Positions 1 through 28,789 of a stretch of DNA of 37,223 bases are shown in pieces; the first letter of the stretch is position 1, and the number at the start of each line of letters is the position of its first letter. The translations under genes and the position numbers were made by a program. The notes under the pieces were generated by a model. The model ran no database searches and had not been told where the DNA came from. It worked only from the letters and a program-made list of their open reading frames with translations. This DNA comes from Psammoneis japonica. Its lineage: Eukaryota. Location of the stretch: contig QPGO01000118.1 in the NCBI GenBank assembly GCA_008632985.1, positions 186,001 to 223,223 on the forward strand, in the 5' to 3' direction.

Positions 1-275
1 CAGAGAAAATGGGATCGTGCGAATGGGGAATCTTGCCAAATCCCCATTCGTTTGCACTTGGATCACATTAAATTGATCGTGCGCTTGCATTGTGGATCGT
101 GCGAATCAAGCCATCACGCGCCATGCACGAGTGATGTCATCGTGTGGAATCACGCTACCATCGTGGGCCAGACGACGGGCTGGTGTGCTTCACACGGATG
201 CTCTCTTAGCATCCTTCTGGAATTGCCTGAGACCTAGAGCCACGCCCTCCTGTGGTCGTGCTTCCCAGGTGCGTG

Positions 276-629
276 TCAACAATGCTGCTTTGCCATGCAC
301 AAGAGGCTTGTGCACGGTCTCGCCGTGTTGTCCAGCAGCGAGGCACACTGCAAAAGAGATGTTCCGCTGGATGGGGAAGATGATTGGGTTGTGCGGCGCA
401 ACTGTGTCAATGGGGGAGGGAGACCAGATGCAGCAGTGCAGTGCCGAGACAGGTGATGCTGCACATTGTTTTCGGAGTCAAATCCACGTTGTCCACAATG
501 AGGACAACTGAAAGACTTGGTGGGAATGGTGGAACGGAGGCAGCCAGTTGCAATGTGCCTGCTGAGACCACGTTTGGAAAAGAAACCAGTTCGTTCACAC
601 CAAGGACAAACAAGACCATCAGACAACAT
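276..629 (-). pseudogene. Degenerate ORF with two C2H2/C2HC-like zinc fingers, probably transposon-derived
   Basis: VCPWCERTGFFSKRGLSRHIATGC and FSCPHCGQRGFDSENNVQHHLSRHC (CxxC-F-L-H spacing twice); ATG at 629; lies in the mutated domain. Confidence 0.5.
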
Positions 630-1020
630 GGCCAATGCACAGAGACAAAGGAGTTGAGAAGAGAATCAAAAGGAAACAGTGTGTGCAGCAACAATCACTT
701 GGGGATTTGGTGAGGGTGGAAAGATGTGAAGAGAAACAAGGTGCGATTGATGGGGGAAGGCGTCATGGCTGGACAGGACAGAAGGATGGAATGGGCAGGG
801 AGAGAAAGTTTAGAAGACTGCCTTGACGAATGCATGCGACAATTTTGATCCAGAAAGTTGATTGACACACAATCCAGAAATCAACATGGAACTGAACAAA
901 CACATGAGGCTTGTTGGATGGGGGGGGGGGGGGGGGGGGGGGGGTTGAATGGTTGAATTGGGGAGTGCAGATGTTTGTTGTTGAACATTTCACAAATGCT
1001 GACTTGACAAATCAGCATGA

Positions 1021-1700
1021 TCATGGATTGGGGGGAGAGCATGTCGGGTTTAATTTCAAGCAATCTTGACGGCTGGTGCGACACCTGGATTGTTGGTGTC
1101 CCAGATGTGACTTCATCACATGCACTTTCTGTGTGGCATCCCGGATGGTTTCAGAAAAGCTGTGCTTGTGAACCTCATCACATGATGAGGGGGAGAGCTC
1201 CTCCATGCCCCTGTCATGCTTGAGGTGTTTGATCCCTTGACAATGAGTTTGCCATCCTTTGCAACTTCCAAACAAAATTCATGATTGCAGCTGTCAACAT
1301 TCTCAGCATGGGCAATTGCCTCTTTGAAAAGAGTGCAAACAGGGTGAGTTTTGACAGTTGAAACCATGTGCACACAATTGAACAATGGAGTCCAAGAATG
1401 AGAGTGAAGCTTGAGTTGCTGCTCAATCAGCACAACAAACTCAAAAACAAACATGACAACATCCCAACTCACCATCTTGCTGCCTGTGCTGATGATGATG
1501 ATCAAATTGAGTGCATGTAAAACTTTTTTGCAAGAAGTCCCAAGTGTTGAATTCCCCAGCTCTCACTTGGCAGTCTTCAAGCCATTTTTGCACTTTGCAC
1601 CAGCAACTGGTTCCCAAGGAGGCATTGTGGTGAATCTTGTTGTTCTTCCTTCTTCCTCTTCTTCTTTCCAGCTTGTTGCTTGCTTGGACAGCCCACTGGA
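1021..1700 (-). pseudogene. Decayed relative of the Crinkler-like gene, sharing its intron (1322-1472)
   Basis: 1322-1500 aligns to 7792-7975; exon end HHHQHRQQD|G versus QQQQHRRQD|G; donor GTGAG at 1472, acceptor TTTTCAAAG at 1322; the flanking exons differ from those of the intact gene. Outer limits approximate. Confidence 0.7.
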
Positions 1701-2395
1701 AATTGCAAAATTCAGACTTGGGCATGCTGGTGCCCAAACAAGAAACAACAGCAACACACGCATAAATTTTTGCATGACCCCAGTGTGCATGATGCATGCA
1801 TGACATCTGCTGCATGTTCAGCACCAGACTCCACAAGGGAAAAAACAGACAGATGCAAGGGGGGAGAGATCCGTGATGACCAGAAATGTGTGGTGGGAAT
1901 GAAAGTGCAGTGACAGCCAAGTTGCCCACCCTCCTGCATTGAGAAGCCTCTGAGTGGCCATCATGTGCTGTTGCATGCTGCAAAGTTGTGCACACATTCT
2001 GCACAGATGTGACATCACAAAAAACCATGTTGGGGAATGAGCACACATTTTTTTGCACATGCTCCACACAAGCACTGCGAGGTCTCTCTTGTGTGACCTC
2101 ACTGTGCAAGCCATCAACCAGGTCCACAATTTCAAACATTGATCATCTTGGAGAGTCAAATCAAATTATGACTCCATTCTGTGGCAAGTCTGCTTTCCTG
2201 CAGAAGGCAAACATCACCATGGAAGAATGACACCAATTTCAAAGCACTGCAAACACCACCACTGTTGTCTTGCACCAATCCACATTGACTCACTTTGCCT
2301 CCAGTGGGTTGATTGGTGTTGCAATTCACAAGGGGCCCACTCACCCCATGAGCATTCACACCACAGGTGGAACAACTCACACCATCAACAGTCTG

Positions 2396-2612
2396 CTCAA
2401 ATTGTTGATGTTGTGTGCCTGTGCAGGACAAACCTCAACTTGTTTCCTCGCAATTCTGCAACATGTCCCTCATCACATTTGTTTTGATTGTCATCATGCA
2501 ACCTCAAATTGTTGATGTTGTGCCTGTGCAGCAGGACAAACCTCAGCTTGTTCCCAATCCTGCAACATGTCCCTCTCATTGCATTTGTTTTGATTGTCAT
2601 TGTGCAACCTCA
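2396..2612. repeat. Tandem duplication, ~107-bp unit x2
   Basis: ctcaaattgttgatgttgtg...gttttgattgtcat..tgcaac starts at 2396 and 2503; a third ctca starts at 2609. Confidence 0.9.
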
Positions 2613-2949
2613 TGGGACAGCATCTCATGCCTTGCCTGAAGGCTCAACACTCATCACTTTGTTAAAATTTCTTGGTCTTGTGTGCCTCAACACCATGCAG
2701 AACTCAGGCCATCAAATGGGGAGAACATTGCAGTTGCAGCAGACATGCACTTGTCATGATGCGATTCTTTGCTCCATGTTTTCTTGGTCTCACACACCTC
2801 TCACATTGGGTTGTGCCTCCCCACCCACCACCTCCCCACCCACCACAGCTTGTGCCATGTGTTCTCAAACTCACTTGTGAGCCATTTGTTCACTCTGCAA
2901 AGGACAGAAAGTGCAGCTTCCTGTCACATTCAAACTCAATGATCAACAG

Positions 2950-5260
2950 ACTCATGGTCTGAACTGCTCAACCCTGGCCCTGCTCAGCAGTTTCAGTCCT
3001 TGGCCAGTTTCCTGCAGCCAACTGCGTTGCTTGGCCACATCAATGTCACACCATGGGCGGCCATCACAGAGGTGTGGGCCTTGAGCCACCCCACTCTGTC
3101 TGCATTCCTTCCACTCTCTCAACTCTTTTTGTTGCTGCAAGGGCTTGCATGGAACAGAATTGTTGATCTGCACACCACACTGCATTGCCTCTGCATCCCA
3201 ACCAGCAACACTTGTTGCAAGTTTGGGGAGAACAAGTTGGTTGCAGACAGTGCTGCCATCCCACACTCCAAGTTGCACAAGTTCCATGGCATTCACGAGG
3301 CAACTGCCTCCAGTTTTCTCAAGCTCCCCTTTGTTGAAGGCTCCTGCAGCCCTGCTGGCATTTTCAGCAAGCACTGGGGCAACTCCCAGATCTGGAATCT
3401 TCTCTGTTCTCTCATTTTACTTTGATCCTGAGGCCTTCAGCCGCTCCAATCTCAACTCCACTTCTGTGCCCCCCTCTTGAGCAAAATGGGGAGTGACAGG
3501 ATTTGAACAGGATTCAGTTGTTTGCGCTGTGTCAGTTTGTTGCACACAGACACCTGTGCTCTTGGTTCCACGCATTGCTGTTTGATGCAGTTTTGCTCTC
3601 AAACCCACACACATGGCTCACAAAAATGATCTCAGGTCACCCCTGCACAGACAGTGGATTGCTCTCAGGTTGTGAGCTTCACTTTCGTGAGCAACAAAAC
3701 AAACGAGTGCTTGCAAATGACAACATGTGATTTGTGCACTTCTGGGCACCTCTGCCACACACCAGCATGAAATGAAACAACAATGCTCACAATTGCATGA
3801 CCACATCAACACTGCTGGCAGACCTGATTTTGAATGAGAATGCTGCTGTTGCTCTGTCAACATCAATTGTGGGCCTTCATTGCTCTCATTGTCAACATTT
3901 GACAATGTGCTGGGTGTGGCGTGGCACATTTCATGCTTGCACAAGACCTGCGTGAGAGTTGTGCCATCTGCTTCTGCACTGGGTTGGATGCTGCATGCAC
4001 ACTGGAGCCTGCCATGCAAGACTTGAGAATGCCCTTGCCACCAAGCTCTGTCACTCCTCCAACAACATTCACCTTGAGCCTGCAAATCCAGTTTCCACCC
4101 AACCACTTGTCTGCCCCGCCAATGTCAGCATTTCCGTGCCACCTCCTGCTTCTTTTTCTAAGCTCCCTCCTGCTGCCACCACTGTGTTGCAGTTGACTCC
4201 CAAGCTCCTTCTCACCCTCCTCACAGTCTGCCCACTCCCTCTTCCAATGATTTGACTGGGGCACACCACTTGAGTGTGAGAACAAAGTTTCTTGGACCCT
4301 CTGGCCACCTCTGCTGATGGATCCCTCACAATTGCCTCACTCAATGATGATGGCATCTTCCTCCTCACTTTCACTGTTGAGACCACCTTGGTGGCCTTGG
4401 CTTCTTCTGCCATCAATTTAACTTTGGCTCTTTGCTTTCCTCCACTTGCTGTTGGCCCAAGCCTCCTTGGTCCTCCTCCTCTGACCTGCTCTGCAACTCT
4501 GACACTTCCCATTGCACCTTTCTCCATGCCCTGACCTCTCCATCCACCCTCCTTCCTTCTGCTGATTTTGCCTGGAACCACCTTTCCAGTGATGCATGAT
4601 TCTGCCTCTCCCTCTCAATGGGCCCTTCAAATGCCAGGGCATGGCCTGGCATGCCATCTTTCCATGATGCCCTTTGCTTTGCCTCCTCCCTTCACACTGA
4701 CTCATCTTCCATCCCTTCTGCCAAATGCCCCACATGCTGCATCATGCGCCCCTGCCACTCTTCCACTGCTGCAGCTGTTTCCCTGCCTCCTTCCATTCTC
4801 ACTTGGTTCAAAGCCACTTCTCCACCAGCTGGCAGCTCACTTCTTCTTTTCATCAATGGCAACTCACTTGTCAATGAGCAGAGAGCAAGCTTGCTTGCAT
4901 CACAGCGCACCCTTGTGGCTCTCCTGCTGGAGCTCTGCATCTCTGGGCTCCTCAAAGATTGCTCGTGGCTTGCACCACAACCAACCAGAGACACAGCTCT
5001 GCAGGGAGCACATCATCAGCCACAAGAGAACGAGTGACAGAAGACAGAGAGCAATCGTCAGGCGATTGCTCCAAAATTGTCTTTCGGCAACAGAGCTGCC
5101 AGCACTGAGTGAACGTTGGATCGCATGGATTCATGTGAACAAGTTTGAAGGGCAAGTCCCCTCCAAAATTTGCCTGCTCAGCCGATTGCGGTCCCTGAAG
5201 AAAATCCAATCAGCACTTGCGACTGTTGTACAGGGTGCTGTGATGGTGACGAAAAGTGCC
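2950..5260 (-). mobile_element. Unclassified decayed coding element (possible retroelement ORF1/gag-like remnant)
   Basis: Broken minus-strand frames with charged protein-like text (e.g. QQKELREWKECRQSGVAQGP, ERERQNHASLERWFQAK); no diagnostic motif recognised. Confidence 0.3.
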
Positions 5261-5686
5261 ATCCAGTGAATTAGCAGGGATAGATGGGATGTAAAGCAGT
5301 AGATTTCAGCATGCGTGATTTAGTACATTTTGATGAGTTGGATCTCTATTAATGTTCGAGTCTAGCTAGGTGCTGGTGCCATTCCAGGATTCGCACTCCT
5401 ATCATCCTTGGATGAAGCTTTCGCATAAACTACTTGACCGAGTCGCCCACGCCCCAAAATTGTACGAACTAAAGCAGCTGCTGCATAGGATCCCAAGCGG
5501 AAGGTAAATGTCCCAAAAAAGCAGCCAGCGAGTTACACCGGGGCAGAAGTTTCAGTTGAATAAGACACGTTGCCACAGACAACGGACACCATCAAGGGTA
5601 CTGAGGCAGTCAAACGAGCTTGTTTCGTCGAACCATCACTGCCGTAGACACGTGCGACGATGCCCGCAGCGGCTCGAGAGAGAAAG

Positions 5687-8160
5687 TTATTTACACGGCG
5701 TACCACCGGGATACGGCTTTGTCCCATCATCACGAATCACCGCAGATGCGAGTTCGTGGACAAGAGCGTTTACGTCACCTGAATTGCTGTGGTCGGCGCA
5801 AAGAAAACGGGCGATTGTGGGACAAGATACTTCATTAACCACCGCGACAGCAGTCTCCAAGTTTCTTGGATGTTCTGCATACCCCTCATGATTGAACTCG
5901 TGCTCACATGCAAAGACGGCCGTAAAGAAGAAGTCCGATTTAGTTCCTGCATGCTCAGAAGCTTTCGCGAAGAACGCTTCACAATATCCCTTCAGTTTTG
6001 CTCGGTCATTCTTGTATCCCGTTTTGCATTCCACTATGACGTACGCAGCCTTGAAACCAGCCGGGACTTCAATTGAGTATGCAAAGTCTATCCATCGATT
6101 TTGATGAGAGTTGTGCTGGTCCAAAACGATCCATGTATAGTTCGTTGTGTCACCGCCGGCAATCTTCTCATAGACTTTTGGGCAAGAGAGTGGAACTGCG
6201 CCAATGCATTCCGAGAGACGCTTGCGATTAGGCGGCATCAGCGCATCAAATTCTGAACGAGGAGACGAAATATCGTAGGCCACCAGCCATTCAAACAAAC
6301 GGCCTTTGATTCCAAACTGAAGGACTCCACTGACGCGGAGGAAAGATATAACAGTGTTGCAGCTGTGTCCTGAGTTCGTACGGGCAAGCAGTCGTTCAAG
6401 GAGCTCGAGAACACATCCAGCGGGGTAGAAGATTGAAATATCGCTCCCCATCATTTCCTTCACGTTGAGCCCGCCACCCGCAATATAAGACTTCTCAGTC
6501 TCGGAACAGTTTTTGAGTATTGCGATGCCGTTGACTATCATCTCAGAGTTGATATCCAGAATCTTTGCGAAGACAGTGCATGCAACTGAAGATACGTTGA
6601 TAGTTTCTCCTCCCATGTTTCCAGCAATTTGTCGACTCATTGCACTAAGTGCCGAGTGATACGCATCATCAACAAGGGAGGGATCAGCGATGCCCTCGCC
6701 TCGTTTGTCCCACAAAGCACAGAAAAATCGTTCGGTAAAGCGTCGGTTGTGGCGACAGCGTTCCAGATATTTCTCGTTGTCTTCAGCGAAAAATGGCATG
6801 AGCTCATATTTCCTCGCAAGCTGGCATACAAAGTCACGAGAAAAAGATCCCTCCATCGGTATCAATTCTGTTTTCACTTGACTGCCCACATTGATCTGTG
6901 TGTCCGAGAAGATATTGGTGCCTGTCATTACAAACTTGAGCCACGAACGTTGGTTCTCCCCATGTTTGTTGATCAACGCATCACATTCTTTGGCCAGGGT
7001 GGTCACAAGGGAATTATCTCTGTCTCCGCCATCACTTGGAGCTCTCATAATCGATTGAATTTCATCAAAATGAAGCACCAGCACCTTTCTCTCTAGAGGT
7101 ATCGCATTCGTTTCGCAGTCGCAGAGTGTTGCTACCCATTTCAAGAGGAACTGCTTTACCTCCCTCATCGTGGACAAGTTCGCGTTAGACATCTTGAATT
7201 TGTGATACTCCAAACCAAGACTATGAGCTGCTTCTTGTACAGTCCGGGTCTTTCCTGCCCCGGGCATCGCAAATATCAGAGCAAGCGTTTTCACCTCCGA
7301 AGCCAACGGCTTTGTTCTTTCTTCTCTTCCCTGCTGGAAGAACAATCGTAACGAACGGATCACCTCGTCTTCGTACAACTCTGGTATAGCTGCATTGAAA
7401 GGATTCTCGCGAAATAGGTTTTGGATACATTCAGCGAAATTCGACTCCTCCTCGGCCTGGATACCGGTACTAATGTATTCGTCGCTAATAGGACTTGATG
7501 TAGGAGTACGGTAAGGCGACAACTGAAACATAATCCCGAAGCTGGGGTCACCCTCAGCATAATTTGCCGTATTTTTGGGATTGTCGCTCAATTTTTCCCA
7601 ACCCATAAGCATTTTTACCGTGACACACGCAGAGTCAACGGTCCGTTCAAGGCCCGTCGCCTCCCAGAACTCACCCACAGTCGATGGAAAACGCTTATCG
7701 TGGAACTTAATAACATTCGTGACTGACAAATTGTGGTTTCTTACGAAGACAGTAAACATGCCAGTCCGCTGCTGCTGCTGCAGTGAAGCTACTTTGAAAA
7801 GAATAGACAAGTACAAACAGTATGAGTTTTTATAGTTGAAACCGTATGTGCGACGAAACAATAGAATCCAAGAACGAGAATGAAGCTCGAATCGCTGTTC
7901 AACCAGCACAATGAATTCGAAAACAAGCGACAACATCTCGACTTACCATCTTGCCGTCGATGCTGCTGCTGCTGCGGACCAATTGTGTATTTGCCGCCAT
8001 CCTCAAGCGATTCAAAGCCCGAAATTTCGTATCCTTCAACGTCGATCAAGCATCGTACCCCACGCCCGTGAATCCACGTGCGGAACTCTTCATCGTTGCT
8101 TAATATTGCTTTGCTCTCTTCACCACTCGCGTCTACTACTCTAATCCTCTTTGGCGCCAT
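5687..8160 (-). CDS. Crinkler/RHS (CR)-like protein: N-terminal header + P-loop NTPase + PD-(D/E)xK nuclease-like domain; exons 8160-7947 and 7791-5687, ~772 aa
   Basis: ATG at 8160; phase-1 intron 7946-7792 (GTAAGT...TTTTCAAAG) joins QD-V-ASL in frame; Walker A AMPGAGKT, Walker B LVLHFDEIQ; C-terminal WIDFAY...VIVECKTG. Confidence 0.8.
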
Positions 8161-10099
8161 TGTAAATAGACAGCAATCTCAACAGTAGAAACGGCAGCAG
8201 CAAAAGCGTTATCGAATAAATGTACCAGAGTCTACGTGGTAATCTTTCTACGGTTTTCGCGCGTAGGATGCAGGCTTCGCACAACGCGCGGAAGCGACGA
8301 CAACACACAAGACGACAACACTCAAGACGACACATTCATCATCGTTGGTCGTTGGCACTGTAACACAAATCGGCTGCGTATCGTCGTCGTATTAATCGCG
8401 ACAGTGTCAACAATGAACCAAGAGCGGCATTGTGTGTGAAGCATGCGAACACTCATTCGTTCTGCTTCTTTCTGTTTGCGCTTGTTCTTTGTTCTTGTGG
8501 GTTTGGTTTCGCGTCGGCATTGTTGTTGGTGGGGCTGGTGCGTTGTTTCTTTCGTTCGTTTCCTTCATCATGTGTCTCTCTTGACCCATTCTCGATAGCT
8601 CTTTGGCAATGGAATGTCTCAAGGGAGAGGTGAAGCTTTGACAGCAACTTGTCGGGGAGTGTGGCTTGATTTTGGGGCGGCTTGTTTGCAAGAGAATTCC
8701 TCGTGTCACAGCTTCCACAGGAAACAAAATGCACTTGCTGGTTTCTACACTGCCTGCCAAAAAAGGCACTCCTAAGATCCAAGTCTTGGGCGATGTTGCT
8801 TTGTTCAAACTTTCCCACAATGTTTGTCTCACAGACATTGCTTTCCCTTTCCTGAACATTCCCACCAAACCACCATTGTGCGCGGCAAACATGCACTGAA
8901 TGGCTCCCGCACTTGATTCTTGGTGATTGACATCACAAATGGTTGATTGGAGGGCAGCCTTCATGGCATTCCGACAATCAAGGCGTGAGATTCCCCCTTC
9001 TAGAGCATCGCGCCATCGGCGGGTGGTGGATCCGCAGCAGCCGTTGTCGATTTGCTCGACATTGTCGTCATTTGGACCGCAAACAACCAAATCTTCCGGC
9101 ATGAGACGCAGTTAAAATTTCATGGCAATGTCTGTTGATCTGCAGTGTCTGAAGTTCTGACTCTCATTGCAGGTTGAGCAGCAGCAACGCAAGGTTCGTC
9201 ATTGTCGACAACATGCCGGTGCGGCAGTGACACCATGCCAAGGTTTATTTTGGATCTCAGCCGCACAAGGCGTGTGTGCTCTTCATGCTTCCGCGTGGCT
9301 TTGCCGTGCAAAAAGGCCCGTGGGTTTTTGCGCTTTCACGCGAAAAAGCGAAAACCATGATTTTTCCGCACCCATGCGGTTTTGCGCGATTGCCCCATTC
9401 AAACAAAATTTGCAATGATGAAGAATGCCAAAATGAACTGACAGAACTCTTCCATTTAAAAACAAACACAAACAAATGTGTGCAGTTTCAACAGTGACAG
9501 TTTTGTCTGATGGCATTGCAAGCCCCAGCTGGGACAGACTTTGGACCTGCAGTTTGGGCAATTTTGAAGAGATCTGTGCCTTGCGCTGTACAAACCCGGA
9601 TGACACATCTGAGTGGACCAGGGCAACAGGGTGCAAGAAAGTGACGGACAGACGCATGCATGCTGGGGACGCATTGCCATTTGCTCTGTCAAATTCTGCA
9701 CAATTTGCACCATCCTCAATTGAGGTTTTTACCTCAATTCATTGCAGGTCCTTGGGAGAAGCACCAACTCCTCATCATGGAGATCCTCGCCAAATTTTTG
9801 CCATGTCTGTCGGGCATCAGGTTCATGAATTTTCCCAACCCCTCCCGGCACCGGTTCAGGTGGGCGCACATGCTGTGCTGGACTCGCGAGCACTTGCCGG
9901 TGGAAAAAGCACACGTCAACACACAAGTCGACAGTCAACACAAAATGACCATGATGGTTTCAAATGATTCCTCTCCATCACCTTCCCCCAAAACATCACC
10001 ACTTGATGCATTTAAGAGTGTTTGTGGTGTTTTGTTTCTGTGGCTGTCACAGGCCCATTTCTGCCAAAATTAGAAGTTGTTTACAGACACTCTGTTTCT

Positions 10100-11040
10100 C
10101 ACGCTCCAGCACCGCTCCCACAGGTGCCACAATGAATGCAACGCAGTCAGCACCATTCAGGCTGCTGCCACACCCTGTGCTCTTTGTGCTGCACGTGTTG
10201 CAGCAGGTGACATTGTTTCCATGGGTGTTGTGTCCCCAAAATGTCAAAAGTGCAATTGCACCATCTCACTCTCTATTTTTTGGCACGTTCCAGCGCCTCC
10301 CACAGGTGCTGCAATGAGTGCAATGCAGTCAGCACCATTCAGGCAACTGCCACACCCTGTGCTCTTTGCACCACACGTGTTGCAGCAGGTGATGTTGTTT
10401 CCATGGGTGTCGTGTCCCCAAAACATCAAAAGCACAATTGTGCTGTCTCACTCTCTGTTTTTTGGCACGTTCCAGCACCTCCCACAGGCGCCATGACGAA
10501 CGCAACGCAGTCAGCACCATTCAGGCAACTGCCACACCCTGTGCTCTTTGTGCCACACGTGTTGCAGCAGGTGACATTGTTTCCATGGCTGTCATGTTCC
10601 CAAAATGTCAAAAGCATGATTGCACTGTCTCACTCTCTATTTTTTGGCATGCTCCAGCGCCTCCCACAGGTGCTGCAATGAGTGCAACGCAGTCAGCATC
10701 ATTCAGGCGACTGTCACACCCCATGCTCTTTGCACTGCATGTGTTGCAGCAGGTGACATTGTTTCCATGGGTGTCGTGTCCCCAAAACATCAAAAGCATG
10801 ATTGCACTGTCTCACTCTCTATTTTTTGGCACGTTCCAGCGCCTCCCACAGGTGCTGCAATGAACGCAATGCAGTCAGCACCATTGAGGCAACTGCCACA
10901 CCCCATGCTCGCCCTGCCACACATGTTGAAACAGGTGACATTGTTTCCACATCTGTCATGTTCCCAAAATGTCAAAAGTGCAATCGCGCTGTCTCGCACT
11001 CTGTTTTTTGGCATGCTCCAGTGCCTCCCACAGGCACTGT
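10100..11040. repeat. Tandem array, 182-bp unit, ~5 copies
   Basis: tccagc(g/a)cctcccacagg recurs near 10105, 10289, 10471, 10653, 10835 and 11017; period is not a multiple of 3. Confidence 0.95.
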
Positions 11041-11189
11041 GGTGACGACAAATGCTGCTGTGTGATTTTACACTTCATGATGCGTTGCACCATCTGCCAG
11101 TGAATCTTGCGTCCAAGGGACTCCAAAGGTGCCAAAAGGAACTTGCGCTGAATGCTGAGAGAGTTCGGTGTTCAAGATTGAAGGCTGGC

Positions 11190-14100
11190 TCATTTGTTGT
11201 GACAGTGGAACAAGTCTGTCTGCCGCCAATCCTGAAGAGATCTCACAAGTGACATGATGGTTGGATTTGCTGCGAGATGTGAATGTGGTGACAGCAGTGG
11301 TGGCAAACAATTGCTTGACAAAGAGTTCATCTGGCTTGGCAAACTGTCCCAGGAATGTGCACTTTGGGCCATTTGTTGTTTGTCTTCTGTGCAGTGCAGT
11401 GAACGATGGATGACAACGCCAGTCACATTCTTTGGCATGGCAAGCAAGATGAGCCTCTCATCACCTTTATCTCGCAACAATGCCGGGAATGTGTTTGGAA
11501 TCAGCAGTTGCTTCTGCAGCTCTTCATGCTCCTTTTGATCACCCGGCGCCAAGGGTTTGCCGTTGTGCTTGTGGAGGCTCGGGCAATTTTGGATGGTGTG
11601 CCTCGGTTTTCCACAGGCACTGCAATTTTTCTTCCTTGTCTTTGCCAGTGGAAGATGGTCTCCATCATTGGAAGACATCTTGTTGTCAGTTGGTTGCTTG
11701 GCAAATGCAGTCCCCTGGTTGATGCTTTTGTCGCATTTTGCCTGAGTTCATGCCTGGACCACTTGCATTGTTGGTGAGATGCTTGTGGCATTGGCCGCAG
11801 GACACCAGGCAATGGGTTTGCTTCTGGGTTTTGAAGAAGTTGTGGCTGGGCAGATTCAAAGGTGGCGTGCATGCTCAACCCACGTCTTGCTCGGTCGGCA
11901 ATTGTTTGGAGCAATGAGGAAAGTGCTGCCATGTTAGATTGGTTGCCTTGCACCAACCTCATGACATTTGACGCTTGAGAGGTCAATTCCTGGTAAGTGA
12001 GATGTGGAGACTCATCCTCTTTGTCAGAATTTCTGTCGAGCATGTTAACTGACGCGTTGTCATCATCGTTGTTGCTGTTGTCGTCACTGCCCTCGTCCTT
12101 GTCATCTTCAGAGGTGCATTGGCATTTGGTGTTAGAGGTGGATGCAGCATCTTCTTGTGGGACTTAACCATCACAATGGGGAGACCTGTCCTCTGATCCA
12201 TCCCCATCATGATTCTCGGTTGCCGAAAAAGTGTGCACATGACTTGGGGTTTCTGCCGAGTGCACTCGCTCCGACAGCCATCGAGGATGCCATTTCATCA
12301 GCACCAGTTTGCCATTGGAGCTCAGTTTGCACTGACACTGAGCACCAAACACGATTCGTAAAAGGCATGGACACCGTTCTCCTGATGGTGTGATGACACA
12401 TTCGTGACAGGTGATGTCCTTGCCACAAGGCCAAACGTGCTTTGAGTTGTTTTCTGCCGCACTGACTTGAAGGCACTTGCTTTTGTTTGTGGCACAGGTG
12501 CACAGATTCTTGTGTCCACATGAAGAAAAGGTTCTCTCAGCCAACTCGTCATCATTGCCAACTTGGCCTCTGTGTTTGGATTTGCACCAAGAGGAAATGA
12601 CGTGAAGATTGTCTTCCTCTTTTCTCTGCTTGCGCTTCAGAATTTCCTGGTGCTCAAGCAAGTGCTTTGTGTGTTCTGCAATCAACCAACTAGCACCAGC
12701 ACCAAGGTGAGCCACCAGACTTGCATGATTCTGTTCTGCAGCTGCAGAACCCTCAAGATTGAGATTCATTTCTGTTTGCCGCAGATGACACCCCGCACAG
12801 CACTCTGGGTTGCCATGAATTTCTTGCAGCAATGACAGTTTTGCGGCATCGGCCTCAACGGTTTCCGCTGCAGCATTGCGTGCAGTGTCCCACTCCTCTT
12901 TGCTTTTGGATTGGAGCATGCAGCAGAGTTGATTGCGGATGAGGGAACACAATGCAACTCCAAAGCATTCGTTGGATGGGAACACTTCTTCAAGCAGGTG
13001 GCAATGGTTGCCTTGGAGAAGGACGCGATTTTCAAAATCAACCTTTTCACTTTCTAGTGAATCAACAAAGCCTTGAGTTGTGTGCTGGTCGGCAAAGATG
13101 ATTCGGACATTGTTGATGCTCCAATGCGGCTCCATTTTCTCCATAGACAAGACTGTTCATTTGTGGTGCTTGTGGGCTTCCTTGACACAAATGCACTCAG
13201 TTGCACATTGAACTTTCATCTCACAGTCCTTTGCAGTTGGCCCAATGCATGGCCATCCTTGGCTGTTTGCACTGTCATTTCTGGCTGTCCAGGAAAAGAA
13301 TGTCACTGCACCAAATCAAGTCATGGCGCATTTCTGCTGTCATGCAGCAAATGTGGCTTCTGGGCGGCCGGTCCCATTGCGTTTCAAATGAAAGTCAAAG
13401 CCATGCAGCGACTTCTTAAATCCTCTGGCCAAACGCAGTGCATCCGAAGTGGACCCGTCCTCTTGCATTGTTTTCTTGAGCATCTTTCCAAGATTGACTC
13501 TGGTCAAAGAACTGTTGGCAACAACCAGTTTGTTGGCAGCAATGGGTTTCTTTGACATCAATTGCTTTAGATCTTCATGCCTGACTTCTTCTTCTTCTTC
13601 ATGATTCAGTGTCCAGTTGCTGACACAGCTGCGGAAGTTGCTCGTGCACTTTGCATCAGCATCCACGCATGAAAGCAAACACTTGAGGAGCTTGGGGTGG
13701 AGATCTTCAGCCTTCATGCTTGGCTTCACACAAAGATCCTCTGCAGTGCTCTGCAGTCCTTGCAAGCTGGGTTGAGTGCGCCACTGCCTTGTTTTGCCTT
13801 TCGACAACACACCGTGTTCAGCTCACAGGTGTGCTGATGCACCGCCGATGTCATCTTCACTTTGCAGAAAATGTCTGGCCAAACCTTCTTTGCAAAAGGA
13901 TCCTTTTTCTTCTCTACAAAGCCATGCATTGTGCGGAATGGGCATTTGCACTGGCTTTTCACAGTGGGGCCGACGTTTCTGCGGTTGGATCCTTCAGCCA
14001 GTGGCTGGACCTTCTTTTTCTTTTTGGTCTCAGAGAAGTGGCAGCAGACACTTTTCTGTTCATGCACTCCCACTGCTCCCCACATCTCCAAAAATTCCCT

Positions 14101-14466
14101 TGCCGCCTGCACAAGCTGCACATGACTTGCAAACATTCGGCCTTGAGGAAACAGCTGCGCAGCCTTGCGTTCAAAGGCTGTCTTGCAACGCTCATTGTCT
14201 CTCTCTCGACTTGTCTCCTCATTGGAAGGAGCATGCTTTCGCATCTCCTCTTCCAAACCTGTGGTGACCCATTTCTTGGTTAAGAGCTCTTTGCTTTGCT
14301 TCTTGAGCTCGACTTCTGGTGTGTTGACGGCACCACACTGGCTGGCCCAGTCGGGCACATACAACGCATGAGACAAACTCATGAGACTGCAGAGTTCAGC
14401 CTGTTTGCTGTCCTTGCGGTCTTGATGAGCTCCACTCGTCATGAGATGGGTCTTCAATTTTTGCAA
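11190..14466 (-). pseudogene. MULE transposase remnant (FAR1/WRKY-like finger, DDE core, SWIM, CCHC knuckle), several frameshifts and stops
   Basis: CKCPF...HQHTC; DILFLDSQK (~13270-13310); GWPCIGP; RIIFADQ; GNHCHLL; SAAAEQNHASL; CPCLLRIVFGAQC; CSACGKPRHTIQNC, in MULE order across ORFs 13726-14466, 13340-13810, 12164-13150, 11501-12043 and 11190-11678. Confidence 0.85.
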
Positions 14467-15365
14467 CTTGCTGATGCTTCATCACATAAATTAGGGACTT
14501 GCTGACAACAACCCTGGGTTGGCAAGGAAGGGGTCATTCCAGCCCCTGTCTGCAGATCCGAAGGCCTTCACAAACCAAGAGAAGCCTCCATCTTAAGACG
14601 ACACAGGAGACACAATCAAAGCAACTGAACTGAGACAAGCAGAAAGAAAAAGGCAACAGATGGACTGTGAGCACTTGTTGTGACAGAGCCAATGCATGTG
14701 CATCATGTTGGTGGACAGAGACTTTCTCGTGAGCATCTCACCTTGATGACAGAGAGCAGAAGACAACACAGTTTCTTGTGGTGCTGCAACGTTTCCACAC
14801 AAATGATGTTTGCTGCACACGCTGCTGGCAGAGAGCAGAGAGATCGGCAGAAACTAGAGAAGATGATGCAGCGCAGCATGCGTGCGGTGCAGTTTGTGCC
14901 GCTTGTCGGTGGTTGATGTTTTCGCATTTTTCTGGTGCGTCAGGGTGGTTTGATGCCGGGGGGAACATCTTCGGGTCGAAAGAGTGATGTGGCAGTTTGC
15001 ATGTGAAGAACGAAATGACGTTCAATCATTTAACGAAAAAGTCGTGGTGAGAATTTGGTGAGGATCTCCGTGGTGAGGAATTGGCACTTCTCGTCCTTGG
15101 CAGACTGGGACACACGGCATTTTGTCGCATTTGGCGACATTTTCTTAAATGAATTGATGATTTGTCGCGAAAAGACGCGAATTGCGACAAAATGTCCGGG
15201 TTGGCGATAAACGGGACAGAAACATTGTTTAGTTATAAAATGATTAATGTCATTATTTATAACCAACCTGAACTTTGGCGATGTCGTTTCAATAAGTGGG
15301 GTAATTAACAGAATTTGGCGATCGATGTCATCGACGAAAATTAATTAATCCGACAAAATTTGTCC

Positions 15366-15441
15366 ACGACACGACAAGACACGACACGACACGACACGAC
15401 AAGACACGACACGACACGTCACGACACGTCACGACACGACG
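15366..15441. repeat. (CACGA)n pentanucleotide microsatellite inside the MITE
   Basis: acgacacgacacgac run with few variants. Confidence 0.95.
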
Positions 15442-15736
15442 ACTCACGAACGAAACACCCACGCCCCCCGCACACGCTAGGGCCCTAACCGCTAACGTCT
15501 CCGTTGACACTACCGGTATGTCTCTTTTGCACGATGATGCAAAGCGACGATCATGCCGCTCTCGGCGGTCTCCATACTCTCGTCAATACCGGGACAACAT
15601 CGTACGCTTCTACATAGTGCAACGGAATGTACCGGTATGTATTGCTGTACTGTACCTTTTATCAGTACGACTGGGCACTTCTGAATGTTGGGGAGCGTTG
15701 CGTTATCGGTATGTCGCAAACGTCCGTCTGTCGGCG

Positions 15737-15940
15737 TTTGTCGGCTCTTGTCGGCGTTTGTCGTACGTTGTCGGGGTTTGTCGGGGCTTGTCCGTCGGGG
15801 TTTGTCGGGGTTTGTCGGGGCTTGTCGGGGTTTGTCGGGGTTTGTCGGATACGACAAAATTTGTCGTACCTCCGACAAAATTTGTCGTACTTCCGACAAA
15901 ATTTGTCGTATCCGACAACATTTGTCGTACGTACGACAAA
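15737..15940. repeat. 10-bp (TTTGTCGGGG) and 21-bp (CGACAAAATTTGTCGTACYTC) tandem repeats inside the MITE
   Basis: 10-mers ~15737-15848, then near-palindromic CGACAAAATTTGTCG units ~15852-15940. Confidence 0.95.
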
Positions 15941-16437
15941 ATCGCCAAAACATTAATTAATAAGTACAGTCTTCGCAGAAAGTTAAATTCATCATGTTTT
16001 AGCACTGTAGTTGATATAACGTTTGTGTTTAGGACACGCCATCGCCAATTAAATGATGATTTTGTCTTATTTATCGCCAACGGTTGAAATTTGTCTCAAA
16101 GGGCGTTTTTCACGACAAATCGTCCAATTCATTTATGGGAATGTCGCAATTGGCGACAAAATGCCGTGTGTCCCTGGGCCAAATCTGAGTGGGCGAACAC
16201 CACTTTTTGGCGCAACTTGAGGGTCCGTCCGCCCTCCGTCAATTGCTTGGCGACAACGGAACTTCTTCGCATCTTTTGATTGATTGACAAAATGCTCTTC
16301 TCATGACAACTCATTCATTCTTTTCCTTATTACCCAGTAAGGAATTCCAGCTTTGCAATTTGCCTGTACTCCCATTCAACGTCGTGGAGCCTTTGTCAAG
16401 TCTTGGGGTGGTCTTTATGTCTCAGCAAGGTAGTGAA

Positions 16438-17929: not shown

Positions 17930-20200
17930 ATTGGGGAAGATTCGTGCTGTAGACTGGCATTGCCAATGGTTGTCGAAACGCGTGCATGCAAAGACTGCCT
18001 CCGGCTCTTGGCCCCTGACCCATGGCGGCACAATTCACGCCATAACAAACATGATGATGGGTGCAGCGCGCTGTTGGCTTTTTCCCCAACAAGACAAAGG
18101 GGCTCAGCAATGCCTCAATGGCTGTGGTTGGAAAGTGGGTGAGTTGCTTTTTCATTGACTTCCTTTGCTTTGCCTGGCAAAGTCCCCAGATTTGAGGCAC
18201 TGTGCAGCGGTGCAGCAGCCATTGCTGCACCATGAGGCTCACCTGAAATCTTCTTGCAGGCACTGAGCCTTGGTGTGCATGGTTGCTTCAGAGCTCTGTC
18301 CCCACAAAAGAGCCCCAGCTTGGCTGCTGTTGTTTCCCAAAGTCACAGCACATGTGCTGGCTGGTTTTTGGCCTGGCTGGGAGAGGGGCTTGTTGGCCCA
18401 TCTTTGTCAGTTTTGTCTCAACCAGATGACCCACCAAGCCTGACTGTCCACAAAGAAATGCACCCAAGGTGTCATGGTGGTGGAAGCTTCCCAAGTCGAG
18501 CACCCCATTTCCAAAACATTGTCACTTTGGTCCCACGGCTGCAGTGCTGGCTCTTGGCTCCTCCTTGTGCACCTGCACACAATGGCAGAAATTTTCTGTG
18601 CTGTCACAAGCATGACCATCACATTGTGCTTGTCTTTCTGACCACTCTCACTCAGGCAGAATGCAGGAATCATGCAATTTCTTTGCGGCATTTTTCAGGG
18701 CTGCAGCACCCCTGCAATGGATGCACATTTGAAGCTTCAAATGCTGCCGCTCCAGTTGGCCTGTGCCCATTTGCCAGGTTGAGGTTGCCACCAATTTTTG
18801 CCAAAATTGTCCCACTCACAGGCATGCTGGTGTGCCAACCAATGTGCCACATGACTTGAGGATGGATGCTCAGGGGTGGGGGTGGATGTTCATGATGGGC
18901 CACGAATTTCCTGCACACTTTGCTGCATCATTTGAAGCTGCCTCTGAACACCCCCAAACACTTGTGTGCTCAACAAACCTTCATCAGGGCTGTTGAACTG
19001 CTGCATGAGAGCTGCACATTTGAAGCTTCAAGTGCCATTCTAGTTGGCCTGTGCCCTGTTGCCAGGTTGAAGTTGCTGCCATTTTTTGCCAAAGTTGTGC
19101 CACTTGTGCCTCTCCAGGAAATGCCAAGAACAATTTGTGTTTGATTGGCTGTGGGGACACACCTGCAGTCAATGAGCTGAACTTTGTGCATGGCCACAAT
19201 CATTGCCCAGTCCATGCATTCTGTGATGTCCCAGGAATGGACAAAGAGTTCAGCCCATTGCTGGAATTTTCTTGGCAAGCACATGTGCATTCAGTGCAAG
19301 GCATCCAGGGTTTTTTCCAAAACATTTTGGGTTCACAAATGTTTGCCCTCACCCCTGCAGATCTGTCCTTGAAGACAGCCCAAGGGAGAGCCTCAGAGGG
19401 CCAGCTGTGCTGCTTGCTTGATCCAACAGATTGTGCCAAAAAAGAACAAACACAAGGCACAGCAAGCCGCTGGCTTTTTTCCTCCAACAGCGCAAGGAGG
19501 CTTGGCAAGTTTTCATTGCCATGGCTGTGGCTGGAGAGTGGGCAAGATTTTCATTGATTTCCCTTGCACTCTGTCCACCCTGACATTGCCTGGCAAAGAC
19601 CCCAGATTTGAAAAGACCGGTGTGTGCATGGAGCAGCACTCTGCACCGTGAGGCTTGCCCAAAATTTTTTGCAAGCAAGCCTTGGCATGCTTGGTTGCTT
19701 GAGAACTTCATTCTCCCACAAAAAAGAAGCCCCAGCTTGGCTGCTGTTGTTTTCCAAAGCCACAGCATGTGCTGGGGTGGCTTGGCAGTGGGGGGGGGGG
19801 GGGAGGCTTGCTCATTTTGGACCATCTTTGTTGGTGTCAGACGACCCACCAGCTGCCTGGGCAACTGACAACTGACGACTGAACCTGACCACCCACAAAG
19901 AAATGTGCCCAACAATGTGCCACAGTGGCAGCAGAAACTTTCCTAAATTGAGCACCCCATTTCCAAAAGGCAACGCTGTTGCTGACTGGCACAGCTGTGC
20001 AGCGCTGGCTTTGAGCTCCTGCTTGCTGGACGAGCTGCGGGTTGGAAAATTTCTGTGCCATCACAAGCAATGACCAGCACATTGTGCTCATCTTTCCAAC
20101 CCTTCTCACTTGGGCAGAATGCAGGGGTTGCTTGGCACAACAGCCCTGATGAGTGATGAGGGCTTGACGAACACACAAGTGTTTGGGGGTGCTCCGAGGG
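17930..20200. repeat. TpA-depleted domain 3 with diverged direct repeats (18065-18669 ~ 19460-20126; 18695-18815 ~ 18984-19105)
   Basis: Shared blocks ttgcctggcaaag.ccccagatttga, ccccagcttggctgctgttgttt, gagcaccccatttccaaaa, ggcagaatgcagg; and tgcacatttgaagcttcaa...agttggcctgtgccc. Confidence 0.8.
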
Positions 20201-20363
20201 AGGTCAAAATGACACGGTGAAGTGTGCGAAATGCGAGCTATTTTAAATTAGAGCGCTCAGCAAATCAGCGAGGAGAGAGGGGCGGGGGCCACCGCATCCA
20301 ATTGGGATGAACCGACCATCGCTTTGTCTACCATCTACCGTACCGTAGAGCATTGCGCTCTCT

Positions 20364-25180: not shown

Positions 25181-26631
25181 CTAACTGGAACCGCCACCAC
25201 TGCTTCCGCCTCCATAATGCTTCTTGTAGCCGCCACCACTGCTTCCTGAGCTTCCATAGCCGCCGCCGCCACTACTTCCTGAGCTTCCATAGCCGCCGCC
25301 GCCACTACTTCCAGAGCTTCCAGAGCCGCCGCCACTACTCCCAGAGCTTCCGGAGCCGCCACCACCACTACTCCCAGAGCTTCCGGAGCCGCCGCCACCA
25401 CTACTTCCAGAGCTTCCAGAGCCGCCACCACTACTTCCAGAGCTGCTTTTGCCAGGACCAGGGCTCGGGCCAGGGCATTCGTTGCAATTGGTGTCATCAC
25501 CCAAATACTTTCCAAAGCAGCTACGTTGCGTGACAATTGTACACGATCCAGGTGATCCACCACTGCTTCCAGAGCTCCCACTTCCTGAACTACCGGAGCC
25601 GCTGCCGCTGCCGGAACTACCGGAGCCACTTCCAGAGCTGCTTCCGGGACCGCCACTAGAGACACCGGGGAAACAGCATGCCCCCATTCTAGTGTCGGGA
25701 GCAGGACAGTCTACTTGAGGACACCTGAGGCCCTCTTTGAGCACACCGCCAAACCTATTAGTGCAGGCCCTTTCCGTAAAAACGTTCCTGCACAAACCAT
25801 TCGGTAGGCAGCAAGCTGACTTGGACGGGCGTGGCGGGCGTGGAGGTGTGGGGCAAGTAACTTGTCTACACTTTTTTCCTTCGCTGAACACGCCTCCAAA
25901 TTTGTTAACGCAGGTCCTTTCTTTAATGACGTTCCTGCACGAGCCGTCCTGTAGGCAGCAAGCTGATTTAGGAGGCCTGTCGGGAGGTTTGCAGATGCCG
26001 GCGTCCCCACAGCTAGATCCGATTCCTTCAAAGTTTCCACCTTTCCTCTTGCACATGTGTGCATCCGCAGTAACGCAACCGGAACTTGAGCAGCAGGCTC
26101 CATAGATTGGGCAAGTTTCTTGATTGCAATTGCTTCCAACGCCCCCGAAGTCGCCGTGCTCGTAGATGCAGTACGCTTGTCCTGTCATCTTGCACTTGCC
26201 AAGAGCGAGCAAACAGCAAGCTCCAATGCCATACTAACAAACAATCAGAAGTCACAGTATCGTTAGGGTGATCGAGACCTTCGAAAAAGCAAAGGTATGA
26301 AAACGAGATGTAACCAAACGTACCCCAGAGAGGACTCTTCCGGTCTTGAAAGCTGCCTCATCTCCGACAGCTTCTTCCAACACGGGCTGAAGAATCGATG
26401 GGAGTTAGAAAAATCGGGGAAATGAAAAACTGGAAGCTAAAGTGAATTCTTCTTACCTCAGCCTTGGACGGGACGCGGTCTGAAATTGAAATAAAAAGCT
26501 TCTCAAATTGAGAACACTGCCATGATGTCACTTGTCAACGTGTCGACAGCCAATTGCGTATGGTACGTACCTGGAGCTGCACAAACTGCCACGGCAAGAA
26601 GAAGAATGGCTCCCCTTGAGAGTAGCGTCAT
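25181..26631 (-). CDS. Secreted Cys-repeat, Gly/Ser-rich protein (~399 aa); exons 26631-26571, 26479-26457, 26386-26324, 26233-25181
   Basis: Signal peptide MTLLSRGAILLLAVAVCAAP; three GT-AG introns splice in frame (1200 nt total); GRVLSG motif; five (G/S)ACC-C-C-G-C-C repeats; GGGSGSSGSS tail. Confidence 0.85.
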
Positions 26632-27404
26632 CTTGTTTTCAAATCAATCTGCTATTGCGTTTCACGACGATCCCTGTTGCAAAAATAATGAAAAGATACA
26701 CCGAACAGTTGCGAATCAATTCTCGAATTTGGATTTGACGTCCATGATGAGAACATCGTGATCTTGTGTGATGTGATCTACATTTAAAACAATTACTTAT
26801 GAATCTACAGCCACCTTTGACATACTATCGATATTATTGTGCACTGAATGTGTCGACCGTCTGTGTACATTTAGGGATTATAAAGGTATATCAAAAAGTA
26901 TGGTGAGAAAGACGAGTTGGTTCCTAAATATTAAAATGTGTGGAATGGACACAATTGTGAATGGTTGTCACTATTATCATTATTAATCATGGATAGAATC
27001 AATTGAGTTTGCGTTTAAATAAACTCGAACATTTAACCATTATTGAATGACCGTTGGGCCTACGTAGAATTTTCTGAGACCAACAAAATTGGGGATGGTT
27101 CAATTGCCCACACATTTTACTGCTGTACATGGCTCTACTCTAGCTCTAGAGTCTACTCTCTAGCAGCAGCTACCACTGGATGGTGGCTCTAGCAGCAGTA
27201 GAGAGTAGCTCTACAGCAGCTACCACGGCAGTGCTGTTCGTGGTGTGTGCTGGCAGCACTGTCGGCCACGAACAAAAACACCACGACTGCTGCTCTCTTC
27301 ACCAAGCAGTGGGGCAGCACAGAGCTTGGAGAGAGAACCAGACCAACTGCTGCTGGCCAGCTCTCTCTAGAGCAGAGAGTGCAACAACTGTGCACAAATG
27401 CCTG

Positions 27405-28080
27405 ACACCCAATTTGTTCAACAATGGGCTTCACAATGTCCAGAGTTGGTTTGAGCCCCATTGCCATTTGACAATGACGGAGCTTGCCACAACAAGTGAT
27501 GATGATTGTGTGTGATTGTTTGAGCTCCCAACCTGACTCCTGATGAAAGCAAAACACAGTCAGACCCAACTTGACAAAATGCTTAAAGCCAGTTTTGCAC
27601 TTGAGAACATCTTGCACTCCTCTTGGCAAAGAGAAGACAAACTGGGCATTTCAAAGCCCTCATTGAATGAACAAAAATTAGAGACCAGTTGAGCTCATCA
27701 ATCTTTCTCAGGGATGATTGGAAAGCCTGCCCACCCAGCAAAACCAAAAGGTCTTGCCACTCCCAACTTTACAAGATGTTGAAGCTTTTTCTTGAACATC
27801 TCACTCTGAATCTTTTGGAGACAGAGCAAGGGTTGAAAATGTGAGGCAGACACAGTGGCTTCAGGGTCTGCTCCAAAGTGAGCCAACTTGCAAGGATGTT
27901 GACCCAATTTTCCATTGAGTGTCTCAGGAAACTTGGGTGGCACTTGTTGCAATTTTTTTTGGTCTTTTGAAAGACAAGATCCTTCAGAAGATGCTGGCTC
28001 ACGCTTGGCACCCAGAATTGAAGTGGAGTGCTCATCATGTGGAAACAGCACAGTGAGTGATGGCTGGCATTTGCCTGAAT
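27405..28080 (-). mobile_element. Ty3/Gypsy pol fragment (linker + N-terminal reverse transcriptase), decayed, within TpA-depleted domain 4 (~27230-28940)
   Basis: KFPETLNGKLGQHPCK, FKKKLQHLVKLGV, W..FPIIPEKD, QDVLKCKTGFKHFVKLGL, TIIITCCGKLRHCQMAMGLK. Confidence 0.85.
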
Positions 28081-28188
28081 TTGTTTTTGCTGCTTCTGGA
28101 CCTGCAAGAGAAAAGTGAACACTCTCCCTGTCATCCCAGAAAGCAAGCTTTTTCATTGCTGGTGTGGACTTGTTTGTTTGTTGTTTTA

Positions 28189-28789
28189 CAGCACCAGATG
28201 AAAAAAATTGCATCAATTCCTGCCTGCGTTGTTCAAAAATGTGATCAAAGAAGCAGATGATGAAGGCACAAGGTCACATTTGGAAACATGTTCCAGCCCT
28301 CCTGGGTGGGACTCCATGTGCCACTTGGTGCACAGAATTTCCATGTGCAAGTTTTGCATCAAAGTTGCTTGGCAGCAAATGTGTTGATGATGGCCAAGAG
28401 AAAATGAGGCAGTTTTGTCATCCGAGGAGTGCTTGAAGTGCGTTGTCAGTGGCTTGCCCCTGGGTGTTTTCTTGAGACATTGAAGAAATTGTCCAGCCCA
28501 GCTTTGTTCTCAAAAAACTGATCACAAGAAATGACAGCCTTTGGCTTTGCAAAATGGGGGGCATGGAACAACTCTTTGCAAAAGAGTGCACACACAGAAG
28601 TGGTGTGTGCGCATGACACACAGAACATGATCAAAAAACATTCTGGGGAATGAATCTGGACAGCTGCTGTTCAAACAATCAGCATGTGCAGGATTTGTGC
28701 TGGAACAGTCTGCCAATCAGTGCAATTGAGGCATTTGGAAAAATCCAGTGAATGCTGGGCAGAGTCTGCATTTTTTTCATCTGGTGCTG
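28189..28789. mobile_element. Candidate ~600-bp TIR element abutting the Gypsy remnant
   Basis: cagcaccagatgaaaaaaat at 28189 and its reverse complement ending at 28789; TA on the left flank only. Confidence 0.45.

Follow-up and report, generated by a model that had tools for sequence, protein, structure and literature searches.

What happens to an intron when a copy of it ends up among transposons? We asked this of a 37,223-nucleotide (nt) stretch of Psammoneis japonica DNA (contig QPGO01000118.1, positions 186,001 to 223,223), here called the window and numbered from its first letter. A Crinkler-like gene in the window has an intact intron, and a second copy of this intron, some 6.5 kb away, has lost every TpA and CpG dinucleotide. 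We consider it highly probable that these ~180-nt intron/exon copies record a hypermutation of transposon domains, in which TpA was converted to TpG or CpA near to saturation on both strands and CpG was lost as well. The two copies are made up as follows, with dinucleotide counts for the whole intron.

7792-7946, minus strand: intact intron of the Crinkler-like gene, 155 nt, GTAAGT..AG, phase 1; TA 8, CG 9
7947-8160, minus strand: exon 1, encoding a small N-terminal header that runs collinear with the start of the homologue P0003
5687-7791, minus strand: exon 2 including the stop codon, a P-loop ATPase (Pfam AAA, 24.2 bits, cut-off 21.2)
1322-1472, minus strand: mutated intron counterpart, 151 nt, GTGAGT..AG retained; TA 0, CG 0, TG 20, CA 15
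1473-1500, minus strand: ~28 nt resembling the 3' end of exon 1; the homology fades further out

Joining 8160..7947 to 7791..5687 yielded a frame of 772 residues with one terminal stop. It is collinear across the junction with P0003, which carries no insert at this point. At the sequence level 7792-7946 thus has the properties of a spliceosomal intron, GT..AG ends and a frame restored by its removal, and a preliminary description of the window was right in speaking of the same intron. The similarity between 1322-1500 and 7792-7975, from which that description started, is real. A blastn comparison of the window with itself aligned 1332-1500 with 7810-7974 (77% identity over 171 columns, E 2.4e-28). 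A transition-tolerant local alignment of 1332-1491 with 7810-7965 scored 208, compared to a mean of 29.3 and a maximum of 34 in 20 shuffles. The pair differs by one 8-nt and two 2-nt gaps, and the shared segment reaches from the 3' splice site to a point ~28-35 nt inside exon 1.

The 156 ungapped columns contained 34 mismatches, 30 transitions and 4 transversions. All seven TpA of the 7.8-kb copy were altered in the 1.4-kb copy (TG 3, CA 2, GG 1, GA 1), and so were all ten CpG (TG 4, CA 4, TT 1, CT 1). Hence 17 of 17 TA/CG sites in aligned columns had changed, 13 of them to TG or CA. The earlier claim that no TpA or CpG of the intact intron survives in the decayed copy was borne out, and all nine changes listed there were recovered (rows 7813, 7833, 7844+7846, 7863, 7944, 7875, 7888, 7893 and 7919). 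CA and TG that already existed were largely left alone: 12/12 CA and 8/10 TG were unchanged between the copies (20/22 together). The chance that background divergence alone altered 17/17 sites is ~1e-11 by arithmetic on the 156-column alignment. The background was taken from 15 mismatches at 122 positions outside TA/CG, i.e. 12% per site, which alters ~23% of dinucleotides.

The 1.4-kb copy is situated in the first of six blocks of the window that are depleted of TpA and CpG.

235-5229: block A, holds the mutated intron copy; TpA observed/expected (o/e) 0.03, CpG o/e 0.17; C2H2 zinc-finger open reading frame (ORF) at 279-665, minus strand
8393-15031: block B; TpA o/e 0.08, CpG o/e 0.49
18043-20239: block C; ~600-bp direct repeats at 18064-18667 and 19460-20125
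27368-28880: block D, poor in TpA and CpG; TpA is gone from 27221 on
30870-32094: block E, poor in TpA and CpG by composition
34578-37223, minus strand: block F, depleted in part; PIF1-like ORF at 35206-37221

Pooled, the poor blocks had o/e ratios of 0.05 for TpA, 0.29 for CpG and 1.78 for CpA/TpG, against 0.57, 0.99 and 1.18 in the rest of the window. Individual blocks ranged from 0.02 to 0.08 for TpA and from 0.13 to 0.49 for CpG. Base composition was equal in poor and normal blocks because both dinucleotides end as TG/CA, which leaves it unaltered. The TpA edges are sharp within ~100 bp. At most edges the CpG loss starts 50-250 bp inside the TpA-poor domain (235-600, 5031-5229, 8393-8600, 14845-15146 and 19974-20239); for example, the start of the window is TpA-poor from 235 yet CpG-rich until ~600. 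CpG loss was much less advanced in blocks B and F, reaching about half in B. The normal islands each contain long ORFs, among them the Crinkler-like gene and ORFs for LRR, HA-domain and SNARE proteins. The island of the Crinkler-like gene measures 3.2 kb and includes upstream and downstream flanks of 233 and 458 bp, respectively, all of normal composition. Genes including their introns and short flanks were spared.

The blocks were checked against contigs built by another assembler from the same DNA sample, a support that is not independent of the sample. One contig spans 1081-3509 with 0 differences and another crosses the normal/poor edge at 18043. Thus, the TpA-poor sequence is present in the reads. 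Among the matches listed, beyond which there were 1812 further pieces, no contig bridged the edges at 5229 and 8393. Of 108 ORFs in the window with at least 100 amino acids (aa), 67 fall in poor blocks. Without TpA only TGA remains as a stop codon, and long spurious ORFs arise in all six frames of these blocks. A Pfam scan of 59 of the 67 (8 in block F were omitted) recognised nothing but the C2H2 zinc finger of 279-665 (minus strand).

What are the poor blocks? Block B holds a DNA transposon with these parts.

9756-15092, minus strand: MULE-like DNA transposon with 53-nt terminal inverted repeats (9756-9808 and 15040-15092)
9748-9755 and 15093-15100: target-site duplication of the MULE-like element, identical 8-bp GTCCTTGG
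11504-13156, minus strand: transposase remnant with an in-frame stop, inside the MULE-like element
10115-11034: tandem array of 5 x 182 bp inside block B, units differing mainly by TG/CA/CG at the same sites

The inverted repeats of this 5.3-kb element are 79% complementary. Its ORF 12167-13156 (minus strand) has 284 relatives; a ZSWIM1-3 RNaseH-like domain (PF21056, Mutator-type transposases) appeared in 2 of 8 relatives scanned, under the Pfam cut-off. Inverted repeats, a target duplication of 8-10 bp and a transposase of the Mutator/ZSWIM type are what a MULE-type element should have, and we tentatively assign 9756-15092 to this superfamily. The element is TpA-depleted throughout, and TpA is back within ~50 bp of its right end. 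Domain edge and transposon end could both be located in one place, and there they coincide. The stop that interrupts the transposase frame was considered as an example of CGA to TGA and discarded, as it is a residual TAA. In block F, the PIF1-like helicase ORF (35206-37221, minus strand) contains 0.1% Tyr, and the block is judged from this ORF to be of the PIF1/Helitron type. The poor blocks that can be identified, B and F, are transposon remains.

Next to the MULE-like element lies another element, 15107-16174, with 128-nt inverted repeats (77% identical) and an internal ORF of 260 aa. Its summed contig depth reaches ~4000, compared to ~60 for single-copy sequence; its TpA is normal and its CpG high. 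It may be a young or an exempt high-copy transposon.

In which direction did the dinucleotides change? Because an alignment of two sequences is symmetric, outgroups were sought to polarise the change. For the PIF1-like ORF 26 relatives were found (40-50% identity), and 23 entered the alignment once the three weakest had been dropped. The MULE-like ORF was aligned with 22 relatives picked for long coverage from 150 listed among those found. In the PIF1 test a column was taken as conserved Tyr when at least 60% of the relatives had Tyr. The PIF1-like ORF kept 0/12 conserved Tyr (Cys 5, His 6, Arg 1), compared with 212/320 other conserved columns. The MULE-like ORF kept 0/11 (Cys 6, His 4, Arg 1), compared with 85/126; of its seven conserved Arg columns three were kept, two had become His and two Gln. 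Combined, 0/23 conserved Tyr were kept in the two transposon ORFs, with Cys at 11, His at 10 and Arg at 2. A change of TAY to TGY or CAY is a change of TpA to TpG or CpA, and the balanced outcomes at Tyr codons imply that both strands were affected.

Sister repeats inside the blocks gave the same answer. Between the five 182-bp units of the tandem array 55 columns vary, 47 of them by pure transitions. At 23 dinucleotide sites the units vary only within TG/CA/CG/TA: 11 sites are {TG,CA}, 11 have CG in some unit and one is {TA,TG}, with TA still present in three units. The direct repeats of block C are 76% identical and differ by TG versus CA at 21 sites. In three repeat pairs of normal blocks such sites numbered 0, 2 and 1, and transitions were about as frequent as transversions. 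For one site to read TG in one unit and CA in another, a TA or CG ancestor must have been resolved separately in each unit after duplication. In the intron pair, too, sites that became TG and sites that became CA are intermingled over 160 nt.

This demonstrated that the direction of change is from TA/CG to TG/CA. The change acts on DNA and on both strands, is dinucleotide-specific, occurs after insertion or duplication, and is confined to domains. The preliminary description had offered the intron pair as a built-in control for the direction of mutation. The direction it proposed, going by the composition of the block, holds; the comparison of two sequences could not supply it, and the polarity came from the outgroups.

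A similar composition was seen in public data. P0036, a relative of the PIF1-like protein, has 0.2% Tyr over 483 aa and carries Cys or His at most conserved-Tyr columns. Among relatives of the MULE-like protein with at least 150 aa, 3 of 110 (P0097, P0086 and P0053) have less than 1% Tyr. All four proteins contain almost no Tyr and show an excess of Cys and His. Tyr-poor public relatives of both transposon proteins suggest that the process occurs elsewhere.

Surviving sites revealed a flank preference. We compared the sites left in poor blocks with the counts in normal blocks, which assumes that the elements once had normal-block composition (R, purine; Y, pyrimidine).

RTAY, ATAT: 0 in poor blocks, 39 in normal blocks
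RTAY, ATAC/GTAT: 1 in poor blocks, 109 in normal blocks
RTAY, GTAC: 3 in poor blocks, 60 in normal blocks
YTAR, TTAA: 20 in poor blocks, 47 in normal blocks
YTAR, CTAA/TTAG: 21 in poor blocks, 59 in normal blocks
YTAR, CTAG: 8 in poor blocks, 34 in normal blocks

RTAY sites were thus nearly all lost (4 versus 208 in total), whereas about a third of the YTAR sites survived (49 versus 140); mixed flanks were intermediate. Survival of TA was 0-0.8% in ATAT/ATAC compared with 38% in TTAA. For CpG the flank effect was weak, with survival between 0.28 and 0.55.

A process of this kind has been caught in the act. Mettrop et al. (bioRxiv 10.64898/2026.01.13.699255, a 2026 preprint) demonstrated TpA hypermutation by mutation accumulation in Bigelowiella natans. 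According to the main text of the preprint, two integrated viral regions gained 231 new mutations, of which 230 were A>G or T>C; the authors place these on TpA. The B. natans genome is described there as having 124 TpA-depleted clusters, with transposon Pfam families enriched among TpA-depleted genes, and an ADAT2-like enzyme is proposed. It is the only other report of targeted TpA hypermutation of foreign DNA in the literature we found. As far as the main text goes, the likeness is close. There as here TpA is converted to TpG/CpA on either strand, TpA is regionally depleted with CpA/TpG enriched, foreign or transposon-type sequences are affected, and a defence-like reading applies. The TpA outcomes in the window agree with this: 5 of 7 TpA of the intron pair became TG or CA, and 21 of 23 Tyr codons became Cys or His. 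Differences exist in degree and target. TpA loss in the window is near saturation (o/e 0.02-0.08), unlike the giant-virus region of B. natans for which the main text gives a Rho of 0.45. The identified targets here are MULE-like and PIF1/Helitron-like elements, those reported from B. natans giant-virus and virophage insertions, and the process in the window is known from sequence and not from live mutation. Thus, the window looks like a further, very clean and nearly saturated instance of the recently described process and not like a new kind.

We propose the following course of events. 7792-7975 is part of an intact gene, and 1322-1500 is a fragment lying within DNA of transposon type. Transposon-derived domains would be hypermutated at the level of DNA, with A:T to G:C transitions at the palindromic TpA that yield TpG or CpA, and the same domains would also lose CpG to TpG/CpA. 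The TpA part would be the process observed in B. natans. The responsible enzyme would be directed at presumably silenced foreign DNA, and deamination of adenine in DNA is the most likely chemistry. Alternatively, thymine could be modified so that it mispairs with G, which would leave the same pattern; because TpA is palindromic, the two routes look alike in sequence. The CpG part would be ordinary deamination of 5-methylcytosine in methylated transposons, a second and separable process. We separate it on account of the nested domain, the unequal completeness in blocks B and F and the weak flank effect. A CpG deficit together with a TpG/CpA excess, the pattern of methylated-CpG decay, was found in the affected domains only.

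Several points count against this proposal. As far as the main text of the preprint shows, B. natans has almost exclusively A:T to G:C changes, nearly no G:C to A:T, and CpG is mentioned nowhere; the CpG loss in the window is different and therefore falls outside the process described there. Blocks A, C, D and E contain no recognisable transposon protein in the Pfam scan of ORFs with at least 100 aa. The element 15107-16174 is very high-copy yet normal, and so either repetition alone is not the trigger or the element is too young. That these blocks are silenced and that their CpG decayed by way of 5-methylcytosine we infer from the sequence. The polarity of the intron pair, which lacks its own outgroup, is carried over from other parts of the window. 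Finally, 15 of its 34 mismatches (44%) lie outside TA/CG, and all of them are transitions (intact to decayed: T>C 6, A>G 5, G>A 3, C>T 1). This points either to old copies, with ~12% background divergence, or to weaker secondary targets of the process.

Does the loss of TpA and of CpG require two processes? One transposon-directed enzyme system, a deaminase or a 5-methylpyrimidine oxidase, might act on both dinucleotides as self-complementary pyrimidine-purine steps and turn each into TpG/CpA. Both dinucleotides were lost in the same blocks, both ended as TG/CA with base composition unaltered, and the decayed copy of the intron pair retained none of 7 TA and 10 CG. ADAT2-type enzymes are reported to deaminate A and C in DNA (cited in bioRxiv 10.64898/2026.01.13.699255). 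Nevertheless, we regard a common system as unlikely. It does not account for a CpG-poor domain whose limits lie, at most edges, 50-250 bp inward of those of the TpA-poor domain, or for block B with a TpA o/e of 0.08 but a CpG o/e of 0.49. The tandem array retains CG at 11 sites versus TA at one. Survival of TA depends strongly on the flanks (0-0.8% in ATAT/ATAC versus 38% in TTAA); for CG the dependence is weak (28-55%). Further, the mutation-accumulation lines are, by the main text of the preprint, nearly without G:C to A:T changes (bioRxiv 10.64898/2026.01.13.699255). The same low probability is assigned to the explicit version, a single editing system that deaminates adenine in TpA and cytosine in CpG of resident double-stranded DNA, with domains ending at transposon ends and a preference for RTAY. 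If true, it would be a functional analogue of fungal repeat-induced point mutation (RIP) with opposite chemistry, and outside the chlorarachniophytes.

The dinucleotides might also have been changed in RNA, by hyper-editing of element transcripts (A-to-I by ADAR-type, C-to-U by APOBEC-type enzymes) and subsequent reverse transcription into the genome. Hyper-edited retro-copies are known in animals. The discussion of the preprint mentions that ADAR prefers an A preceded by U (bioRxiv 10.64898/2026.01.13.699255). A cDNA (complementary DNA) would however carry changes of one polarity; in the window, changes of the two strands are intermingled over 160 nt, and Tyr codons turned into Cys (11) and His (10) about equally. 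Among the affected elements is a DNA transposon, complete with inverted repeats and target-site duplication, and tandem units of one locus were resolved separately, which needs mutation in place. Editing of RNA is thus very improbable. We give even less credence to a TpA/CpG-free state that is ancestral, with TA and CG gained by normal DNA, or to elements selected to avoid TA and CG in the way RNA viruses avoid UpA and CpG. Such avoidance is real in many viruses, and the alignment of two sequences is symmetric. But the outgroup alignments of 22-23 relatives show conserved Tyr where the window copies have none, and TG versus CA in sister repeats is unreachable in one step from either state. In addition, the depletion includes non-coding tandem repeats and pseudogenes with stops, and conserved cellular genes sit in normal blocks. 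We hence retain DNA-level hypermutation of TpA with a separate decay of CpG.

How does such a hypermutation compare to other known systems? It is reminiscent of fungal RIP, where dinucleotide-specific transitions also occur in transposons in place, on both strands and in sharp domains beside normal genes. RIP is described as C-to-T at CpA and thus creates TpA (in the account of PMC2621366). Here TpA is destroyed, A:T to G:C is dominant, and the composition is opposite to the RIP expectation. Also unlike RIP, no dependence on duplication was seen in the window; the high-copy element 15107-16174 is normal. The decay of methylated CpG resembles the window in that CpG to TpG/CpA is confined to transposon DNA while the genes have a CpG o/e of 0.99, but it accounts for the CpG half only. 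With ADAR/APOBEC hyper-editing the window shares deamination against foreign sequences and, for adenine, the preference for a 5' U/T neighbour. Those enzymes act on RNA or single-stranded DNA with single-strand polarity, whereas here both strands of resident double-stranded DNA were changed. The favoured flank is RTAY and not a 3' G as for ADAR/APOBEC.

The window displays the process near completion, with sharp domains of transposon size, genes and introns spared, both strands hit, CpG decay superimposed and a flank preference. The domain, strand and RTAY features constrain candidate enzymes. Two of the tests used here, Tyr-free transposon ORFs and TG versus CA between sister repeats, can be applied to the sequence of any genome. 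For annotation the TpA-poor blocks are a trap: they present gene callers with spurious long ORFs and conceal transposons from profile searches.

What is the fragment at 1.4 kb? The preliminary description had called it a host-gene-like paralog inside a silenced block. A homologous fragment of ~180 nt is indeed present there. In transition-tolerant alignments its flanks scored 43 and 46.5 against the intact gene, compared to shuffle maxima of 57.5 and 70.5, and tblastn with exon 1 and 15 family proteins detected nothing further of significance in 1-2200. Because neither flank is significantly similar to the intact gene, there is only a fragment, and the status of a paralog is not supported. It could be what remains of a paralogue, a segment picked up by a transposon, or a mobile intron. 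A high-copy mobile intron ('introner') was considered and rejected: summed contig depth is no greater over the intron than elsewhere in the gene, and at the block copy it is that of single-copy sequence, in a test blind to copies below 90% identity. For an RNA gene in the intron, no Rfam family reached the gathering score anywhere in the window. A first metagenome scan for the DNA of relatives gave none, and a second gave 4 short, distant loci of normal composition, none with an alignable intron. Within the pair, GAAT to GAGT makes up 3 of the 15 differences outside TA/CG (7866, 7880 and 7891 versus 1390, 1404 and 1415). This may be a weak secondary target, with A preceded by A, or chance.

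The identity of the 772-aa protein is less certain than its gene structure. Pfam returned only the AAA match of exon 2 and, for exon 1, a weak Doublecortin-like match (E 0.03, under the cut-off). For exon 2 only 14 relatives were found in a set of 5.8 billion proteins, all without a name. Its nearest ESM-Atlas cluster is 'Crinkler family protein' (score 0.96), and PF20147, the Crinkler header, occurs on 45% of the members. We take the cluster as a lead to a putative Crinkler protein and not as proof of membership. A candidate nuclease motif near the C-terminus was noticed on reading the sequence by eye; it is not a tool result. Another normal island contains an ORF of 350 aa (25181-26233, minus strand) in which repeated Cys-rich modules are followed by long Gly/Ser runs, without a Pfam match. 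A variant of the Crinkler-like gene was present in the same sample: over 2.3 kb (5437-7781) it is ~2.5% different (60 letters, 13 gaps), and its depth is 2-4x that of the window version. The Crinkler-like gene is thus recently multi-copy or strongly heterozygous, yet free of hypermutation.

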